Assembly (NCBI GenBank): GCA_964624185.1
Contig: CAZUWK010000002.1
Span: 1-36,088 of the forward strand
DNA: 36,088 nucleotides
Source of the DNA: an uncultured Gammaproteobacteria bacterium
GTDB lineage: Bacteria; Patescibacteriota; Microgenomatia; 0-14-0-10-38-17
Direction of reading: 5' to 3'
How positions within the stretch are numbered: position 1 is the first letter of the stretch; every line of letters begins with the position of its first letter. The translations under genes and the position numbers were made by a program. Of this stretch, positions 7,194 through 29,028 are shown piece by piece. Under the pieces are notes generated by a model. That model worked only from the letters and a program-made list of their open reading frames with translations. It had not been told where the DNA came from and did not search any database.

Positions 7194-8439
7194 TAACAAA
7201 AAAACCGGTTTGGCTAAGGGAGAAAGGTTGGCCGGTTTGGCGATTTGGCTGGAAGGGGCTTTGGCCCTCTCAAAGGCTGTTATTGGCCTTGCTTCCGGTA
7301 GCCTGGTACTGATAACTGATGCTATTCATAGTGCCTCTGATTTACTCTCTATTATTACCTCTTGGCTGGGTTTAAGAATTGCCCAAAAGAAAGCTACCAA
7401 ACGCTTTTCTTACGGCTATTACAAAGCGGAAAGCGTTGGCGCCTTAATAATTTCGGCTTTAATTATTTATGGTTTTTGGGAAATGTTTTCTCAGGGGCTA
7501 TCCAGTCTTACCCGCCCATCCCAGGTTTCTATTCCCCTTTTGGCGATGGGGGTTTCCTTAGTTGATGCTTTATTTTTGTTTTTCTTTGGTAATTATGAAG
7601 TTCGGGTGGGCGAGGAAATTAACGCTCAAAGCTTAATTGCTATGGGTAAGGAAAATAGAACCCACATTTTTTCTTCGAGCGCGGTTCTAATTGGTACTTT
7701 GGCGGCTTATTATCAAATTCCCTATCTTGAAGGGATAATCACCATGGGTATTTCTTTATTGATTTTGGAAATTGGTTTGTCTTCAGGTAAAGAAGCGGTT
7801 TTGTCATTAATGGATGTTAGTCCGGGCAAAGAAGTGGAGGAAAAAGTTGCCAAGGCCATTGAGTCGGCGCCAGGGGTGGAGGAATTTTGGGATTTGAAAT
7901 TAAGAAAATCGGGCCCTTATGTATTTGGCCAAGTTAAGGTAGGGGTAAGAAAGTTTATTGACGTTTCCCGGGCCCATAAGGTTGCCGATAAGATTGAAAA
8001 AGAGGTCAAAAAGGTAGTTGCCAATGTTGACTCTTTGGCGGTTCATATTGAGCCGTTTAGGAGTGATTTTTGTCATTTAGTGATTCCGGTTAAAGATAAA
8101 AAAGATTTGGAATCGACTCTTGATAACCGCTTCGGTCGAGCGCCGTATTTTTTGTTTGTTAATTTAGAAAAAGATGAAATTAGGGGCTTTTATTTTATTG
8201 ACAATAAGTTTAAAAATAAAAAAGTTCGGGCCGGTTTAGCAGCGGCAAAACTAATTGTCGATCAAAAAAGTCAGGTCTTAATCGCCAATCAGGTCGGCGA
8301 GATTTCTTTTCATGCTCTTCACGACAACTTAATTGATATTTATCAGACAAAAAAAGCCAAAACCGCCAAAGAAGCGATTAGCTTATTTTTGAAGGGAGAA
8401 ATTGATCAGTTGGTCGAACCAACAAAGGAAAAAAATTAA
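7183..8439 (+). CDS. cation diffusion facilitator (CDF) transporter fused to a C-terminal NifX-like domain
   Basis: The six-TM N-terminal part carries the TM2 motif DAIHSASDLLS. A CDF cytoplasmic domain follows (VEEFWDLKLRKSGPYVFGQVKVGV...VHIEP). The last ~115 aa read HLVIPVKDKKDLESTLDNRFGRAPYFLFVNLEKDE...VLIANQVGEISFHALHDNLIDIY, repeating the NifX-like pattern of the preceding gene. The start overlaps the upstream stop by 11 nt. Confidence 0.7.
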   Translation: MVDNNKKTGLAKGERLAGLAIWLEGALALSKAVIGLASGSLVLITDAIHSASDLLSIITSWLGLRIAQKKATKRFSYGYYKAESVGALIISALIIYGFWEMFSQGLSSLTRPSQVSIPLLAMGVSLVDALFLFFFGNYEVRVGEEINAQSLIAMGKENRTHIFSSSAVLIGTLAAYYQIPYLEGIITMGISLLILEIGLSSGKEAVLSLMDVSPGKEVEEKVAKAIESAPGVEEFWDLKLRKSGPYVFGQVKVGVRKFIDVSRAHKVADKIEKEVKKVVANVDSLAVHIEPFRSDFCHLVIPVKDKKDLESTLDNRFGRAPYFLFVNLEKDEIRGFYFIDNKFKNKKVRAGLAAAKLIVDQKSQVLIANQVGEISFHALHDNLIDIYQTKKAKTAKEAISLFLKGEIDQLVEPTKEKN

Positions 8440-12525: not shown

Positions 12526-14460
12526 TTAGAAAATTACTTGGCTTAGGAGTTCGTCTATTTGGGCGGTGGCCATGCCAATCACCTTATCGCCACCGCCGTA
12601 GTAGATAAAAAGAGTATTTTTCACCAAGATCGCTCCGCAGGGAAAAACCACGTTAGGAACATCACCAATTTGTTCATATTTTTCGGTGGGCTTGATAATT
12701 GGGTATTTGCTTCGATAAAGAACTTTGCCGGGGTCGTTTTGGTCCAAAATCATCATCCCAACCCGATATTGATGGTCGATATCGGAAACACCGTGGTACA
12801 GGAGCAGCCAGCCGGAGTTAATTTTAATTGGTGGGCCGGCAATACCGATTTTTTCTCCATCCCAGCCATTAGGCCGAGGATAAATTGCCTGCTCTTTTTT
12901 AAGCCAATTTTCTTCTTTTTTTAGTTCTTCTAGGCTATTAACGTAGTCAATGGCGATATCTCTCCCCCCGGTTCGGTGCAGGATAACATATTGGCCATTG
13001 ATTTTCTCCGGTAGGAGACAACTGTTTTTATTGTGAACGCCAAATTTAGAGATGGCAACCGGATCAGACCACTCCCAGCGATGATTAACAAAATCATTAA
13101 CGGTGATTGATGACATCGCTACGCGAGGAGGATCAATGCCGTTATAGGCGGTATAAAACATGTAAAACTGGTCCCCCATTTTGGTAATTCGGGGGTCTTC
13201 ACAACCAGAAAGCCGCCCTGGTTCTTTTTTTTGTTCAAAGTCCCCTCGGGGGGTATAAATTGGCTCATTAAAACGCTTAAAGTGGAAACCGTCATCGCTT
13301 TCGGCTAAGCCCAAAGTGGAGGTATGATCCGGCGATTGAGCCCGATAAACCAAATAAAATTTGTCCTGTTCGTAAACTGCGGCCGGGTTAAAAACGGAAT
13401 TAGCCTCCCATAAATTTTCTTCGCGGGGAGTAAGAATAGGATTATGATGATATTTAGTGGCCAAAAAAACTTCCTTGGTAGGGTTATGGAACATATTTTT
13501 AAATAAGTCGTTGATGTCAATTTCGGCCAGGGCGCAATGATTATCGGCGGCACCATAGTAAAGGCGTAAGCGTTTACCCTCAAGCGTGGCTCCGGAAGGA
13601 AAAACCACATTGTCGACGGCGCCTTTTTTTTCGTATTTTGTTTTTGGGGCCATTATTGGTCCATCGGTTCGGGCAATAATTTTTTTTGGGTCATTTTTAT
13701 CTAATAAGGCGGCTTCGATGCTAAAAAGCCGCTTTTCGGGAGTGTAGTAGTTTTGAATATGGGCATAAATTAGCAACCAGCCATGTTTAGTTTTAATTGG
13801 TACCGTGCCAACTTCGATTTGATCGGAGTTTAAGCGGCGCAAGTTAATGGAGTGTCGATAATGATCCAGGCATTTATACCATTTGTTCCAAAAACCCGGC
13901 GACCAAATATCGGACAGCTGATTAAAATAGGCCAAACCAATTCGAGCCGGTGGCTGGTCGGTATCGGCGGTTAAGACGGCCGCATATTGACCGTTAATCT
14001 TTTCCGGGAAAAGAGCCATCGCCTTAGCGTTAAAATGGGTGACCAGGTGTTTGGCTTGAATGGTTTTTAAATCTTTGCTAATGGCCAGGCCAACCCTGAT
14101 CCCCTCTGGTTTTGGCGGATAGCAAGACAGGGCGGTGTAAAAAATATAATATTTGTTTTTTATTTTGGTAACTCTGGGGTCTTCACAACCGTATTTTTCC
14201 CATTCTTTTTCCGGTTCAACTAAAACCCCTCTTTTGGTAAAGTCGACGCCATTTTTGCTAACAGCATGAGCAATGGTAGAAACGGTCATTTTTTGGCCCA
14301 GATGCTCTTTTTTGGCCGACATCGCCCGATATAGGAGATGATATTGGCCGTCTTTGACAACGGTGGGATTGAAAGCCCCCTCGGTTTCCCAAAGATTTTT
14401 TGGATCAGGAGAAAGGATTGGGTTCTTAGGATGGCGGACCACTTTCAAATTATTGATCAT
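12526..14460 (-). CDS. tandem double GH130-family module protein (beta-mannoside phosphorylase/glycosidase-like)
   Basis: Two copies of the GH130 pattern are present. Copy 1 reads NPTVVKDGQYHLLYRA...CEDPRVTKIKNKYYIFYTA...YYGAADNHCALAEI. Copy 2 reads NPAAVYEQDKFYLVYRA...CEDPRITKMGDQFYMFYTA...YYGGGDKVIGMATA. I prefer ATG 14460 (MINNLKVVRHPKNPIL), which lies 4 nt after the upstream stop, over the track start at 14490. Confidence 0.75.
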   Translation of the reverse strand: MINNLKVVRHPKNPILSPDPKNLWETEGAFNPTVVKDGQYHLLYRAMSAKKEHLGQKMTVSTIAHAVSKNGVDFTKRGVLVEPEKEWEKYGCEDPRVTKIKNKYYIFYTALSCYPPKPEGIRVGLAISKDLKTIQAKHLVTHFNAKAMALFPEKINGQYAAVLTADTDQPPARIGLAYFNQLSDIWSPGFWNKWYKCLDHYRHSINLRRLNSDQIEVGTVPIKTKHGWLLIYAHIQNYYTPEKRLFSIEAALLDKNDPKKIIARTDGPIMAPKTKYEKKGAVDNVVFPSGATLEGKRLRLYYGAADNHCALAEIDINDLFKNMFHNPTKEVFLATKYHHNPILTPREENLWEANSVFNPAAVYEQDKFYLVYRAQSPDHTSTLGLAESDDGFHFKRFNEPIYTPRGDFEQKKEPGRLSGCEDPRITKMGDQFYMFYTAYNGIDPPRVAMSSITVNDFVNHRWEWSDPVAISKFGVHNKNSCLLPEKINGQYVILHRTGGRDIAIDYVNSLEELKKEENWLKKEQAIYPRPNGWDGEKIGIAGPPIKINSGWLLLYHGVSDIDHQYRVGMMILDQNDPGKVLYRSKYPIIKPTEKYEQIGDVPNVVFPCGAILVKNTLFIYYGGGDKVIGMATAQIDELLSQVIF

Positions 14461-14464
14461 TTTT

Positions 14465-16069
14465 TTAGTTTTTTGGTTTAATAACAGCATTTTCTAGTTT
14501 AGCATTACCGGTAGTTTTTAGCTGATCCAAAAAGCGGTCTAAGTTAGCCGTGGCAACGCAAACATAAGAGTCGGCGCCGCCGTAATAAACAAATAAATTA
14601 TTACCAATGATAACCGCGCCACAAGGGTAAACTACTCCGGCCTTAAAGCCGTCGTTGTCATACCACTGATCAGGTTCAATAATTGGCTGTCGGGAGCGAT
14701 AAAGAAGCCTGGTTGGGTTATTTAAATCTAAAAGCATCGCTCCCACTTTATAGCGATGACCTTCTTTGTCATCAACGGCCTGGTAAATTAACAACCAACC
14801 ATCTTTAGTTTTTAGGGGTGGAGCGCCAGCGCCGATTTTCCGGCTGTCCCACCACATTGGCGAACGGGGGCGAATGTGATATTGGCCTTTTAAATATTTA
14901 CCATTAGTAAAGTCGAGAGAATCAACAAAGTCAATTAGAATATCAGGGAAAATTCGGTGGAAAATAACATATTGGCCGTTAATTTTTTCCGGTAAAATAC
15001 AAGCGCTTTTATCAACCACCCCGGGCGGTGAAACTAGAATCGGCTTTTTCCAAAGCCAGTTGCGGTTTAAAAAATCTTTTAGGGCAATTGAAGTGAGGGC
15101 AATTCGGGGTTCGGTGACACCATCAAAAGCAACGTAAGTCATATAAATTCGCTCCTCAACTCGGGTTAGGCGAGGATCTTCACAGCCGCCACAACCACCG
15201 GAAGAATAGGCAGTGCTTAATTGACCAGGCTTTTTAGTGCTTTCAAAAGGCTGGGTAGGGACAAAAACCGGTCGGTCAAACCGCTCATCAATTTTGATGC
15301 CGTCACTGCTGGTGGCGTAGCCAATGGAGGAAACATAGTCAAAACCTTGGGCTCGATAGAAAATATGAACCTTACCGGCCTCATAAATTGCCGCCGGATT
15401 AAAGGTATTAAAGGCTTCCCAAGCATTTTTTGATTCAGGCCTAATAAGTGGGTTTTGGGCGGGTTTGGTTAACTGATAGCTCTTCCTAATTTCGATTTGG
15501 CCGCTGATACGATAATCGGGATAAACTATAGCCCAAATTGCCCCGTCGATTAACCAATAAGCTAAATATTGCCCCCTGATTTTTAATAAATCAATAAAGA
15601 TTGGCGAGTTGTTTTTTGAGGATGGGTTTATTTGCCAAACCGGTTCACTACTGCGCCAAAGAAGCTTGGGGTCTTTTTCCTGAGAAAAGGCTATTACCCC
15701 AATTTCGACTTGATTGTTTTGAGGGTTTTGATAGTGGAAAAAGACCAAAACTCCCTCATTGGTGGTAAAAGCATTTTCGATTTTTAAAGATTCTGGGTCA
15801 ACATATTCACTACCCGGGGCGAGCAGATGATGGTAGCGCTGGTTTAGGAAAGCGATTTTCTTTTCTTTGATTTTGGGATAGGTTTTGACAAATAGGCTTT
15901 TGGGCCGGGCCTTTTTAAAGTTAAAACCATCACTGCTTTTTAAAATTTGCCCGGTTCGGAGCGGTTTTTTATTTTGGATGATTGAATAAGCGGCGCCTTT
16001 ATAATGGCAAAAAAAGAAGGTTTTGCTTTGGGAGCATTGAGCTTTTGTAAAGCCTAGAACTTTAAACAT
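14465..16069 (-). CDS. GH130-family protein with an N-terminal degenerate GH130-like module
   Basis: The C-terminal ~330 aa read NPAAIYEAGKVHIFYRAQG...GCEDPRLTRVEERIYMTYVAFDG...YYGGADSYVCVATA. The N-terminal ~200 aa show weaker propeller-like patterns (LKSSDGFNFKK and IGVIAFSQEKDPKLLWRS). Confidence 0.7.
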   Translation of the reverse strand: MFKVLGFTKAQCSQSKTFFFCHYKGAAYSIIQNKKPLRTGQILKSSDGFNFKKARPKSLFVKTYPKIKEKKIAFLNQRYHHLLAPGSEYVDPESLKIENAFTTNEGVLVFFHYQNPQNNQVEIGVIAFSQEKDPKLLWRSSEPVWQINPSSKNNSPIFIDLLKIRGQYLAYWLIDGAIWAIVYPDYRISGQIEIRKSYQLTKPAQNPLIRPESKNAWEAFNTFNPAAIYEAGKVHIFYRAQGFDYVSSIGYATSSDGIKIDERFDRPVFVPTQPFESTKKPGQLSTAYSSGGCGGCEDPRLTRVEERIYMTYVAFDGVTEPRIALTSIALKDFLNRNWLWKKPILVSPPGVVDKSACILPEKINGQYVIFHRIFPDILIDFVDSLDFTNGKYLKGQYHIRPRSPMWWDSRKIGAGAPPLKTKDGWLLIYQAVDDKEGHRYKVGAMLLDLNNPTRLLYRSRQPIIEPDQWYDNDGFKAGVVYPCGAVIIGNNLFVYYGGADSYVCVATANLDRFLDQLKTTGNAKLENAVIKPKN

Positions 16070-20398: not shown

Positions 20399-20839
20399 AT
20401 GTTAAAAGAAAACGGTACCTTAATTGCCCTTTTTATTTTGGTTTTTATTATTTTAGGTCTTTTTTGGTGGTTTGATCGTCAGGGTCAGAGTTTGGCTCCG
20501 ACACTACTAACATCAACACCATCACCGGCTCCAGAAAATGGAATCGACGAGACAGCCATAAAAAACGCCCTATTAAAAAATTATAACCAATCTCAAGATC
20601 GGATTAATTTGCTGGTTTTGGAAGCTCAGGGCCGTTTTGCTCAAGGGATAGTCAGTTTTTTTCCTGATGAGCGGGTTTGGTTGTGGTTGGCTTATCGGGA
20701 AGACAATCAACAAGACTGGCTTTTAGTTCATGATGGCCAAGGTTTGCCAATTTGTCAAAAGTTGGCCGAAATTAGCTTTCCGGCCTCTTTAGCCAGCCAG
20801 TGTTGGGATCAAGACGCGGGAATAATCGTTAACCGTTAA
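20399..20839 (+). CDS. membrane-anchored hypothetical protein
   Basis: 146-aa ORF with an N-terminal TM segment (LIALFILVFIILGLFWWF). I recognise no domain. Confidence 0.4.
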   Translation: MLKENGTLIALFILVFIILGLFWWFDRQGQSLAPTLLTSTPSPAPENGIDETAIKNALLKNYNQSQDRINLLVLEAQGRFAQGIVSFFPDERVWLWLAYREDNQQDWLLVHDGQGLPICQKLAEISFPASLASQCWDQDAGIIVNR

Positions 20840-22977: not shown

Positions 22978-23002
22978 AAAAAACAAATTAAATTGCTTTA
23001 CC

Positions 23003-23037
23003 TGTGCCTATGCAAGGCCTGGCCTTGCATAGGCACA
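23003..23037. repeat. REP-like perfect palindrome TGTGCCTATGCAAGGCC-T-GGCCTTGCATAGGCACA
   Basis: 17-bp arms with a 1-nt centre, read directly from the sequence. Confidence 0.9.
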
Positions 23038-23064
23038 AGAACCTTAATTTAGGAATAAAAAATT

Positions 23065-23787
23065 TTATTCTAGTGTTAGCCCCTTAATATCATCAATAAC
23101 AATATCGCCAAGAACAAACGATTGGTAAGATAGGCTTTTATTATTTTTAGAAAAATAATGGGAGATAGTTTTGGTGTTTATCCATTTTGTTTTTCGCAAG
23201 CCGTTATATTCCGGAAAAGAGCAAGGACAAACCTCTTGCCACCCTACAATCTGTTTATTATTTTTTTCGTGCCTATGCAAGGCCTGGCCTTGCATAGGCA
23301 CAGATTTAATACCTTGAGCGTGAATATATTGAGAAAGAAGAAGTAGTTGTTCGTCAGTTTTGACTCTAGCAGCGCAATAAACGCCCTGATAAAGAGGGCC
23401 AACCCTTTCATATTTATAATTAAAATATATCGAATAGCGAGTTGAAAATGAATTCATAAAATTATCAATGGAGTTAGCCCCCCTCTGTTTTACCAGAAAA
23501 TGAAAATGGTTGGGTTTAAGACAATATGCCAGCAGAGTTATTTCTTTAAAAAAATTATTTAATCTTAATTGTTTATAAATTTTATCTCTTTCTTTTTGGT
23601 CAATTTTTTCTTCTAGTCTTAGCAGAAGAGAAGTTTCGTCCTTTTCAGTCAAGTATTCTTTTAGGTAGGTAAGAAAAACAGCGTAGTCTTGTTTATCAAG
23701 AAAAATTTTTCTTTTTTCTACTCCTCGATTATAGATATGGTAATAGCTTTGGGGCAAATATTGTTTTCTAGCGTTTTTGGCAGGCAT
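23065..23787 (-). CDS. REP-associated tyrosine transposase (RAYT) / IS200-like HUH Y1 transposase family
   Basis: YHIYNRGVEKRKIF.D..DY..FL matches the N-terminal pattern. CLKPNHFHFLV carries the HUH motif (HFH). The remaining motifs are YFNYKYERVGPLYQGVY and QYIHAQ, a YIH.N-type catalytic-Tyr helix. Confidence 0.7.
   Translation of the reverse strand: MPAKNARKQYLPQSYYHIYNRGVEKRKIFLDKQDYAVFLTYLKEYLTEKDETSLLLRLEEKIDQKERDKIYKQLRLNNFFKEITLLAYCLKPNHFHFLVKQRGANSIDNFMNSFSTRYSIYFNYKYERVGPLYQGVYCAARVKTDEQLLLLSQYIHAQGIKSVPMQGQALHRHEKNNKQIVGWQEVCPCSFPEYNGLRKTKWINTKTISHYFSKNNKSLSYQSFVLGDIVIDDIKGLTLE
23269..23301. repeat. REP-like palindrome copy inside the RAYT coding sequence
   Basis: GTGCCTATGCAAGGCC-T-GGCCTTGCATAGGCAC is translated on the minus strand as VPMQGQALHRH, in frame. 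Confidence 0.9.
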
Positions 23788-23803
23788 GAGGATTTTGGCC
23801 TTT

Positions 23804-23838
23804 TGTGCCTATGCAAGGCCTGGCCTTGCATAGGCACA
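23804..23838. repeat. REP-like perfect palindrome, identical to 23003-23037
   Basis: Read directly from the sequence. Confidence 0.9.
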
Positions 23839-24103
23839 GGAATTAAAAAATAGCTTTTTGTCAGGATAGGGATTATCTATTTAATTGTCAACAAGCAATT
23901 GTCAATATGAGTAAATGGGAAGACGAACGACAAGGAGGATAACAGTAAGACAAGGGGATGAATAAGAAAATACCTTTTTAGCCTTATGAATTAAATTTGT
24001 CTTTGGGGCAAATAGCCAGTGGTAATTTGGCCAAACTAGCCTCACGGCAAAAAATAAATCGTCTTCATGGTGACGGTGATAATCGTTAGAAGAAAGGGTG
24101 GGT

Positions 24104-27795: not shown

Positions 27796-27869
27796 AGAGT
27801 ATATAGAGTTATATTATGTATATTTAAGCAAAAAAGAGATTAATTTGCAAATTAATCTCTTTTTTGCCT

Positions 27870-27894: not shown

Positions 27895-29028
27895 ATGATT
27901 AATCCTTTTCGCCGTTCCTACCAAACTCTTAATTTAATTACTATAAACCCTAGGGTTCTTCTTGATAATTATTCTTTTTGGCAAAAGCAAAATCCTCAGG
28001 CTAAAATTGCCCCTGTTTTAAAAAGCAACGCCTATGGCCACGGCCTAGAGTTGGTTGGTCGTTTTATCGATCAAAAAATGGACTCGCCTTTTATCGCCGT
28101 GGACAGCTTATACGAGGCTTGGAAATTGGAAAAGGCGGGAGTAAAAACTCCAATTTTGATTATCGGCTACACTGTTCCGGACAATTTTAAAATTAGGAAA
28201 AAATTAAAGTTTCATTTACCGGTTTTTGATTTTGAAACTGCCTTGACCCTGTTGCGCTATCAGCCCCAAACCAGACTTCATCTTAAAATTGATACCGGCA
28301 TGAATCGGTTGGGTATTAAGCCGAATCAGGTAAACCGTTTTATCGGTTTTTTGAAAGATCATCACCTGGAGAAGCAAGTAACCGGGATTTATTCTCACCT
28401 GGCTTGCGCTGGTACTGATGAAGATTTTACTCAAAAACAAGTGGGTATTTTTAAAAAAGTCGTTGTCCAATTTGAACGGGCCGGTTTTTCTTTTGCTTGG
28501 AAACACATCGCCGCTACCGCCGGAAGCTTAACTGTCAAAGACCCGGAGTTTAACTTAATTCGGGTGGGTTTAGGCTTTTATGGTTATTTGCCTCCTCTCG
28601 TGCCCAGGCAAGGCCAGGCCTTGCCTAGAATAAAACCGGCCTTAAAATTAACCACCCGAATTGTTCAAGTTAAGACAATTGATAAAGGGGAAATAGTCAG
28701 TTATGGTGGCCGGTTTCGAGCCCAAAAGAAAACAACTATCGGGGTTTTACCAATTGGTTATTATGACGGCCTGGATCGGCGTTTATCTGGTCGGGGTTTA
28801 GTTCGGATTGGCTCAAGTTATTACCCCCTTGTGGGTAGTATCTGCATGAATATCGCTATGATTGACTTATCAGCCCTAAAAAAACCCTTTGTTGGCCAGG
28901 AGGTAGTGGTAATTGACGATCAGGCAAAAGCTAAAAATAGTCTGATGGCTCTTTCTTCTTTGGCCAAAACTATTCCCTATGATCTTCTAGTCGGCTTGGC
29001 CCAAAGCACCAGGAGAATTTTAATTTAG
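27895..29028 (+). CDS. alr: alanine racemase
   Basis: APVLKSNAYGHG carries the PLP-lysine motif. RVGLGFYGY and SYGG are also present, and the length of 377 aa fits. Confidence 0.85.
   Translation: MINPFRRSYQTLNLITINPRVLLDNYSFWQKQNPQAKIAPVLKSNAYGHGLELVGRFIDQKMDSPFIAVDSLYEAWKLEKAGVKTPILIIGYTVPDNFKIRKKLKFHLPVFDFETALTLLRYQPQTRLHLKIDTGMNRLGIKPNQVNRFIGFLKDHHLEKQVTGIYSHLACAGTDEDFTQKQVGIFKKVVVQFERAGFSFAWKHIAATAGSLTVKDPEFNLIRVGLGFYGYLPPLVPRQGQALPRIKPALKLTTRIVQVKTIDKGEIVSYGGRFRAQKKTTIGVLPIGYYDGLDRRLSGRGLVRIGSSYYPLVGSICMNIAMIDLSALKKPFVGQEVVVIDDQAKAKNSLMALSSLAKTIPYDLLVGLAQSTRRILI
28600..28628. repeat. diverged REP-like palindrome inside alr
   Basis: GTGCCCAGGCAAGGCC-A-GGCCTTGCCTAG is translated in frame as VPRQGQALPR. 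By manual alignment it matches the RAYT-associated palindrome at 26 of 33 positions over 28600-28632. Confidence 0.7.

Follow-up and report, generated by a model that had tools for sequence, protein, structure and literature searches.

The window analysed here, by which we mean the whole 36,088-nt stretch of DNA and to which all coordinates refer unless another contig is named, contains an alanine racemase gene (alr) with a 33-nt palindromic patch, GTGCCCAGGCAAGGCCAGGCCTTGCCTAGAATA, in its reading frame. The patch very probably derives from a repetitive extragenic palindromic (REP) element, of a family whose other copies in the window lie within and around a gene for a predicted REP-associated tyrosine transposase (RAYT), and it now persists in alr as a neutral coding relic which, we believe, has no function of its own. 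Since its arrival the patch has evolved as ordinary coding sequence, the encoded peptide being kept while the stem of the hairpin was eroded by synonymous changes.

The palindromic patch in alanine racemase

Pfam assigns Ala_racemase_N (residues 21-233, E 9e-43) and Ala_racemase_C (residues 250-375, E 1e-33) to the product of the alr open reading frame (ORF; Table 1), and the closest solved structure is that of the alanine racemase 4y2w (E 1.5e-51). The pyridoxal phosphate (PLP) lysine K43 and the catalytic tyrosine Y270 are invariant in a 40-sequence alignment. Judging from its sequence, the gene is apparently intact and the enzyme presumably functional. The patch forms codons 236-246 and is translated VPRQGQALPRI (V236-PRQGQALPR-I246). 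Both Pfam domains share one frame on either side of these residues, and the ORF is open throughout.

The reference REP is a perfect 33-nt palindrome, GTGCCTATGCAAGGCC-W-GGCCTTGCATAGGCAC, with a 16-bp stem and three copies in the window. With the REP oriented so that A stands in the loop, the alr patch is identical to it at 26 of 33 positions and differs at positions 6, 8, 26 and 30-33; a perfect 10-bp G+C-rich stem is left. Frame and orientation are those of the REP copy inside the RAYT gene, which reads VPMQGQALHRH. The initial annotation had proposed both the 26/33 match and the comparable in-frame translation, and both held on recounting. The peptide common to alr, RAYT and the glycosyltransferase described below, VP[M/R]QGQAL[H/P]R, comes from one of two stop-free frames of the REP.

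From base composition, 2.4e-6 matches of at least 26/33 are expected per window on both strands, and 300 first-order Markov simulations gave nothing better than 23/33. For the 19-nt core of the REP with at most three mismatches, 0.01 matches are expected per window. In about 350 kb of related low-G+C contigs, no matches of at least 21/33 were found beyond REP copies (of this family or of related variants flanking RAYT genes) and the patches in alr and the glycosyltransferase. A chance resemblance of the alr patch to the REP is ruled out by the composition and Markov statistics together with the lack of any other such match in these contigs. The ORFs of the window hold no further decayed patches, the sole other match to Q[GD]x[ATS]L, at 20480, being not palindromic, and an Rfam search of the window matched no family anywhere.

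The Alr orthologues retrieved by a protein search form a graded series, in which the patch is lineage-specific. It is present in every orthologue of at least 86% identity to the window Alr (P0001-P0007, 86-100%, loop LPPLVPRQGQALPRIKP) and absent from the two nearest sister clades, namely P0008 and P0009 (77-78%, loop SP[FP]S[NI]SKK[TI]LSKLEP) and P0010 and P0011 (72-74%, loops SPFRSALPAIRP and FPSRSAPSAVRP, respectively). P0012-P0014 (56-58%) have an unrelated loop of the same length as that of the window, and in most patescibacterial Alr proteins, at lower identity, the loop is two residues longer. A neighbour-joining tree computed with the loop masked reads ((REP clade),(P0008,P0009)),(P0010,P0011). 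Because of this grouping, the patch appears to have arisen on the stem of a shallow clade of Patescibacteria (Microgenomates group). The patch shares 7 of 33 bases (hand count) with the equally long loop of P0014, and therefore these two are not homologous.

REP-type peptides also occur in the same loop of distant Alr orthologues, seen at the peptide level as HQGLTL in P0049, IQGQTL in P0089 and NLQGPTL in P0097; P0110 is also listed. The loops of P0049, P0089 and P0097 are 3-14 residues longer than normal.

The loop in question, between the ...GFYG motif and the ...PALKL strand, occurs in all Alr proteins, solved structures included. It has 15 residues in the window, 13 in P0008 and P0009, 10 in P0010 and P0011, 15 in P0012-P0014 and 17 in the majority of the family; the window loop is thus two residues longer than that of the sister clade, two shorter than the family norm and normal in comparison with the solved Alr structures. 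Relative to orthologues without it, the element brings a net gain of 2 residues, not 11. A simple 33-nt insertion is ruled out by the loop lengths of 120 orthologues and the solved structures, and the added insertion of the Rickettsia palindromic element (RPE) type, with which the patch had been compared, is not supported by a loop that exceeds the sister clade by two residues and falls two short of the family consensus. Because the loop length is nearly normal relative to that of the relatives, 9-11 REP-derived codons appear to stand in place of 7-9 ancestral loop codons. An AlphaFold model of Alr has a mean predicted local distance difference test score (pLDDT) of 91.6, with averages of 59 for residues 231-240 and 76 for residues 241-250. 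The patch falls in the sole internal segment of low confidence, the linker leading from the PLP barrel to the C-terminal beta domain, and the next strand is E250-255. This inter-domain linker agrees with the variable loop in which the patch had first been placed.

Close relatives record the decay of the hairpin. The window patch reads GTG CCC AGG CAA GGC CAG GCC TTG CCT AGA ATA, the 95% identical orthologue in L006 has ... GCC TTA CCT AAA ATA, and the 86% identical one in L007/L048 has GTG CCT AGG ... GCC TTA CCT AGA ATA. As L007 retains the REP T at position 6, the patch of the clade ancestor would have matched the REP at about 27/33 positions in all and at 27/29 in the stretch 1-29. A single change among the clade members alters the protein (R to K); the rest are synonymous, and the peptide is conserved. 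The synonymous change TTG>TTA in L006 and L007/L048 places a C.A mismatch in mid-stem, and T6 to C (CCT>CCC) in the window and L006 breaks pair 6-28. The folding energy is -10.1 kcal/mol in the window, -7.2 in L007 and -5.0 in L006. Against shuffles, the stem scores z -3.8 in the window and -0.65 in L006, the latter being no better than shuffled sequence. Third positions of the window and L007 agree at 9 of 11 codons of the patch, against 73.5% gene-wide, so the patch appears to be under no extra third-position constraint. Because synonymous changes break the stem, the folding energy falls and third positions are unconstrained, there is apparently no sign of selection on the hairpin. A hairpin under selection was accordingly rejected as an account of the patch, given that close relatives break its stem by synonymous changes.

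REP copies in a glycosyltransferase and in the RAYT family

Metagenome contigs of the Joint Genome Institute (JGI) were scanned for one REP arm, which gave 21 loci. These include copies identical to the RAYT locus and alr of the window, and four of the 21 (L036, L037, L038 and L042), which come from a G+C-rich organism, match by chance and are not palindromic. The scan yielded the further coding copy that was looked for: a family 4 glycosyltransferase (GT4) ORF in L053 holds GTGCCTATGCAAGGCCAGGCCCTGCATAGGCAC, 32/33 identical to the REP and translated in frame as VPMQGQALHRH, in the frame and orientation of the alr and RAYT copies and again in an inter-domain linker (also in L054). This GT4 patch covers residues 180-190, between Glyco_transf_4 (13-176) and Glycos_transf_1 (from 186). 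With GT4, a second housekeeping gene has this REP in that frame, from which we conclude that this REP family enters coding DNA.

An 80% identical GT4 orthologue (L056; also L057 and L058) has ATGCCTATGCCGGACCAGGCCCTACCTGGGCAT, a 24/33 match, at the identical site and between the same flanks, AAG TTT and AAA AGA. In an 87% identical orthologue (L059) an unrelated 8-residue linker without REP occupies this place, and other GT4 orthologues have 8 or 11 unrelated residues in the linker. The net gain from the GT4 patch is 3 residues, not 11, the REP replacing the linker. A fresh and a decayed copy at one site suggest repeated hits or the overwriting of an old copy. In each orientation two of the three frames are stop-free, and three coding copies would fall in one of the four frame-orientation combinations with a chance of about 1/16 (hand estimate), which is no more than suggestive. 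The GT4 contigs come from the same metagenome samples. The names of the GT4 relatives place this gene in the Microgenomates group, near metagenome-assembled genomes (MAGs) of Candidatus Shapirobacteria, and through them the window organism would likewise belong to the Microgenomates group. In the distant GT4 orthologue P0154, the same linker contains the REP-type peptide AILQGEALRK, seen at the peptide level. Taken with those in the distant Alr proteins, such peptides suggest independent REP captures at the same spots.

The translated RAYT of the window has the HUH motif HFH (...KPNHFHFLV...) and the tyrosine YIH (...SQYIHAQG...), and from its fold, this motif and the tyrosine it is a predicted Y1/HUH transposase. 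Following the YIH tyrosine, [LS]QG[EQ][AT]L[QR] is present in 105 of the 120 best-scoring RAYT homologues, out of 4418 with E <=1e-5, and homologues at 53-60% identity nearly all carry this REP-type motif. The motif peptide is the translation of TTGCAAGGC-nnn-GCCTTGCAA. In 104 of the 105 the L is preceded by A, T, S or P, whose codons are reverse complements of a GGN glycine codon, and none of 2000 shuffles reached the observed frequency of codon complementarity in the flanking residue pairs, the sequences being phylogenetically non-independent. The RAYT gene of L061 has an internal GCCTCGCAAGGTGAGACCTTGCAAG, with 25 nt in full agreement with the REP that lies upstream (a GGT/ACC variant), and that of L065 an internal CTACAAGGCCAGGCCTTGCGGA matching its own flanking REPs (a CTACAAGG...CGG variant), which stand as a head-to-head doublet upstream and a single copy downstream. 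L021, a contig from a Dehalococcoidales bin, encodes a RAYT of 219 residues, 46% identical to that of the window, with the same core TGCAAGGCC-W-GGCCTTGCA on both sides and no internal copy; a few other family members also lack one.

The in-frame internal REP is thus a feature of most of the RAYT family that tracks the flanking REP of each lineage. The initial annotation had read the copy inside the RAYT gene as an insertion. A one-off insertion is ruled out by the motif in those 105 homologues and by the lineage's own REP variant in both L061 and L065. No description of a conserved in-frame REP within RAYT genes was found in the literature searched.

As DNA, the REP has a folding energy of -17.8 kcal/mol (z -7.3). 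Its ends in the window are CTAT...ATAG, not the GTAG of strict GTAG/CGTC REPs, and the related variant of L065 does end in GTAG/CTAC; the family is therefore close to the GTAG type without belonging to it in the strict sense. REPs flank the RAYT gene likewise in L021, L061 and L065. In the window, the REP-RAYT-REP cassette lies between Sua5/YrdC and a mazG remnant and replaces about 300 nt, most of mazG included, in comparison with relatives (L004, 905-1205). The 95% strain of L006 has a HepT/nucleotidyltransferase toxin-antitoxin pair in the neighbourhood of the cassette, and no RAYT.

REP sites were tallied from the window and the JGI metagenome contigs, from which 13 distinct sites were recovered, about 9 of them without a credible covering ORF. 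Several sites of the JGI scan are apparently extragenic (L035, L041/46, L043/52 and L044/50). In three variant copies (L047, L049 and L055) the left arm is intact and the right arm is truncated or altered (...GCATAGAATT, ...GCATGGACTT and ...GCATGGGCTT, respectively). The longer repeat around them takes in some 45 nt upstream, with TTTGAACATTT as the last letters, and on the downstream side GTTTATTCC. At its right end the L047 copy has TAGAAT, which resembles TAGAATA in the alr patch. Four contigs of the MAG 'Dehalococcoidales bacterium H66_684' (L020, L021, L025 and L027) have the same REP core, ATGCAAGGCC-W-GGCCTTGCAT, which means either horizontal spread of REP and RAYT or mis-binned Patescibacteria contigs. 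A scan of the contigs of GTDB representative genomes gave 22 matches, none with a full REP, and no RAYT relatives were found by a scan of viral contigs.

Table 1 Coordinates of alr, REP copies, RAYT and GT4 genes and other features.
Feature	Contig	Position	Strand	Remark
alr ORF	window	27895-29028	+	alanine racemase
REP-derived patch	window	28600-28632		inside alr
10-bp stem of the patch	window	28606-28626
40-nt palindrome	window	27828-27867		immediately upstream of alr
REP-RAYT-REP cassette	window	22978-23987
RAYT (Y1_Tnp) ORF	window	23065-23787	-	Pfam PF01797, E 5e-11
REP copy, outer	window	23004-23036		flanks Y1_Tnp ORF
REP copy, internal	window	23269-23301		within Y1_Tnp ORF, translated VPMQGQALHRH
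REP copy, outer	window	23805-23837		flanks Y1_Tnp ORF
ORFs with direct repeats	window	12526-16069	-	two adjacent ORFs
GT4 ORF	L053	2584-3654
GT4 patch, 32/33	L053	3121-3153
GT4 patch, 24/33	L056	2771-2803
GT4 orthologue without REP	L059	5991-7052
RAYT gene	L061	~1845-2540
RAYT gene	L065	~7282-7986
REP copy, 32/33	L039	19-51		C-terminal tail of rve-type integrase ORF, other open frame (LYLCKAWPCIG), close to stop
Variant REP copy	L047	12-44		inside longer shared repeat
Variant REP copy	L049	310-342		inside longer shared repeat
Variant REP copy	L055	1976-2008		inside longer shared repeat

Elsewhere in the window, three diverged direct repeats, spaced at about 985-1000 nt (repeat families D2, D3, D6 and D10), lie in two adjacent large ORFs (654 and 534 residues) and indicate putative tandemly duplicated domains or paralogues.

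Origin of the patch

In the reading we favour, a REP would have become alr coding sequence in the common ancestor of the shallow Patescibacteria clade. On arrival it may have been a single-stranded DNA hairpin in the hands of the HUH/Y1 transposase, or it may have been copied from a REP donor in repair or replication, and only arrivals with an open frame and an acceptable linker length would have survived selection on the essential gene. Several points weigh against this reading. No alr allele with an empty site turned up at high identity, the nearest REP-free orthologue being only 78% identical, and the event itself is unseen. The nearly unchanged length of the alr loop is not what a simple 33-nt insertion predicts. 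The right end of the patch, GCC TTG CCT .. ATA AAA, resembles GCT TTG CCG .. ATT AGA in the P0010 loop at 11 of 18 bases (hand count), both encoding A-L-P-x-I; part of the right arm may thus be ancestral, or microhomology may have been used on arrival. The source genome lies outside the GTDB representative set, and the REP sites counted are those of the window and the JGI contigs. The GT4 contigs would belong to the organism of the window by virtue of shared samples, G+C content and identity levels.

As for the route, an insertion followed by deletion or trimming and a one-step templated replacement appear roughly equally likely. The latter, a rival for the route and not for the REP origin, would have a REP donor copied into the linker by microhomology-primed template switching or short gene conversion, with 9-11 REP codons written over 7-9 ancestral ones, and we hold it to be a serious possibility, though short of an even chance. 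In both alr (+2 residues) and GT4 (+3 residues) the ancestral linker has been lost from between conserved flanks that are themselves intact, in GT4 even with a nearly pristine copy, and a fresh GT4 copy in one lineage and a decayed copy of equal length in another fit conversion overwriting old copies. The RAYT cassette, too, was no simple insertion, as it took the place of existing sequence, most of mazG among it. In the divergent promoter region immediately upstream of alr, the window has a perfect 40-nt palindrome (20-bp arms, no loop), the right arm of which differs in L006, L003 and L008 (AAATTAAAAAATATTTTTTGC); the window lineage apparently turned an imperfect palindrome into a perfect one, which is a signature of template switching. 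Against templated replacement, the microhomologies are short and were chosen after the fact, the RAYT gene, like P0089 and P0097 at the peptide level, does gain length from its REP-like segment, and no direct evidence separates this route from insertion with selection on linker length.

The palindrome might instead have been kept in alr as a nucleic-acid structure, for example as a binding or cleavage site of the RAYT or as an mRNA structure, with T8G and A26C as compensatory changes made in place. We consider this quite unlikely. The initial annotation had regarded the stem as maintained by these two differences, and they are indeed stem partners; the 10-bp stem persists in the window well beyond shuffled expectation. 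They are also the only two differences of the inferred ancestral patch in positions 1-29, for which the chance of forming a pair is about 0.01-0.02 (hand estimate), and the metagenome scan, whose pattern allowed G8, gave no extragenic REP with that base. But the chance of one compensated pair rises to about 0.2 when all seven differences are counted (hand estimate), and the stem is not maintained in the 95% and 86% orthologues with TTG>TTA, nor at pair 6-28 in the window and L006. The within-clade changes are synonymous but for one, so the peptide is what is conserved; third positions of the patch are under no extra constraint relative to the whole gene. T8G and A26C both change amino acids (M to R and H to P), and the pair could have arisen within alr or have come from a REP variant; variants with compensated stems exist, such as C6/G28 in L055. 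In L056 the decayed GT4 copy acquired CAT>CCT too, its stem partner staying unchanged, and this points to a cause at the protein level or in mutation. Less probable still, to the point of being hardly credible, is a hairpin without any relation to the REP, formed in place as the loop evolved fast, through chance or a local template switch complementing an ancestral GCC-TTG-CC, the resemblance being a coincidence. The Alr loop is hypervariable and indel-prone, P0010 shares A-L-P at the right arm, and a palindrome was perfected in template-switch-like manner 750 nt upstream. A 26/33 match is, however, expected far too rarely for coincidence, the left arm including GTGCC (non-palindromic in alr) is 15/16 identical to the REP in L007, which a local copy of the right arm cannot give, and the copies in GT4 and RAYT are read in one and the same frame.

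Beyond the REP origin of the alr patch, the REP/RAYT system of the Microgenomates group might repeatedly write its hairpin into the same housekeeping linkers in a length-neutral, frame-preserving and templated manner, perhaps in connection with the RAYT-internal REP, which would then be a cis element serving, for example, in autoregulation or as a donor template. We regard this broader proposal as rather doubtful. Candidate events are those of the Alr clade and, at the peptide level, of P0049, P0089 and P0097, as well as those of GT4 in P0121, P0123 and P0154.

Relation to known systems and significance

GTAG/CGTC REPs lying wholly inside ORFs of known proteins have been reported from many species (Di Nocera, De Gregorio and Rocco 2013, BMC Genomics 14:522, PMC3733652). 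There, single in-frame REP units encode about 10 residues and are argued to be possibly neutral in flexible linkers or loops. The initial view that such behaviour would be unusual for a RAYT-associated REP was therefore overstated, intragenic in-frame REPs having already been published. Like them, the alr patch is a short RAYT-type palindrome, in frame and in a linker. Unlike those cases, which are inserts decorating the protein, it is length-neutral, and it differs further in belonging to Patescibacteria, to a low-copy REP family with the end ATAG, and in being a decayed copy confined to a small clade. The alr patch thus extends the in-frame intragenic REPs already described to the Candidate Phyla Radiation; the literature searched yielded no paper that connects REPs or RAYTs with Patescibacteria in the sense of coding patches.

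RPEs, as PMC3733652 and PMC3184786 relate them after Ogata et al. 2000, are in-frame palindromic repeats in surface or linker regions encoded by essential or housekeeping genes. The account in PMC3184786 gives them a length of about 105-146 bp. They add tens of residues to the protein. The alr patch is likewise palindromic, in frame, in the linker of an essential gene and in a host protein that is presumably functional. Unlike RPEs, with which no transposase is associated, it measures 33 nt and 11 residues, brings no net gain, and shows no sequence relation to them. REP/RAYT units, REPtrons and REPINs (Nunvar 2010; Bertels and Rainey 2011/2017) are treated here as presented in PMC5581495. The locus of the window resembles them in having a single Y1/HUH gene flanked by copies of a dispersed short palindrome, as does L065 with its upstream doublet. 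It differs from known units in the low copy number of its family and in the conserved in-frame REP inside the transposase gene of most members. Quasi-palindrome correction of the Ripley type, by template switching, generates perfect hairpins and clustered changes with no net change in length. The 40-nt palindrome upstream of alr is in keeping with this process, and the length-neutral REP patches may be so too; its classical template is local, unlike in the alr case, where the donor would be an ectopic REP and hence a hypothetical source.

The alr patch offers a clean, dated example of a mobile palindrome turned protein-coding in an essential enzyme of a bacterium with a reduced genome. Relatives at 95%, 86% and 78% identity bracket its arrival and decay, and they show that the hairpin is not preserved once it has become coding sequence. 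How RAYTs and REPs move is still unsettled, and the pattern seen here, with the same frame in three genes, reused linkers, length-neutral replacement and a REP inside the RAYT gene itself, could inform that question.

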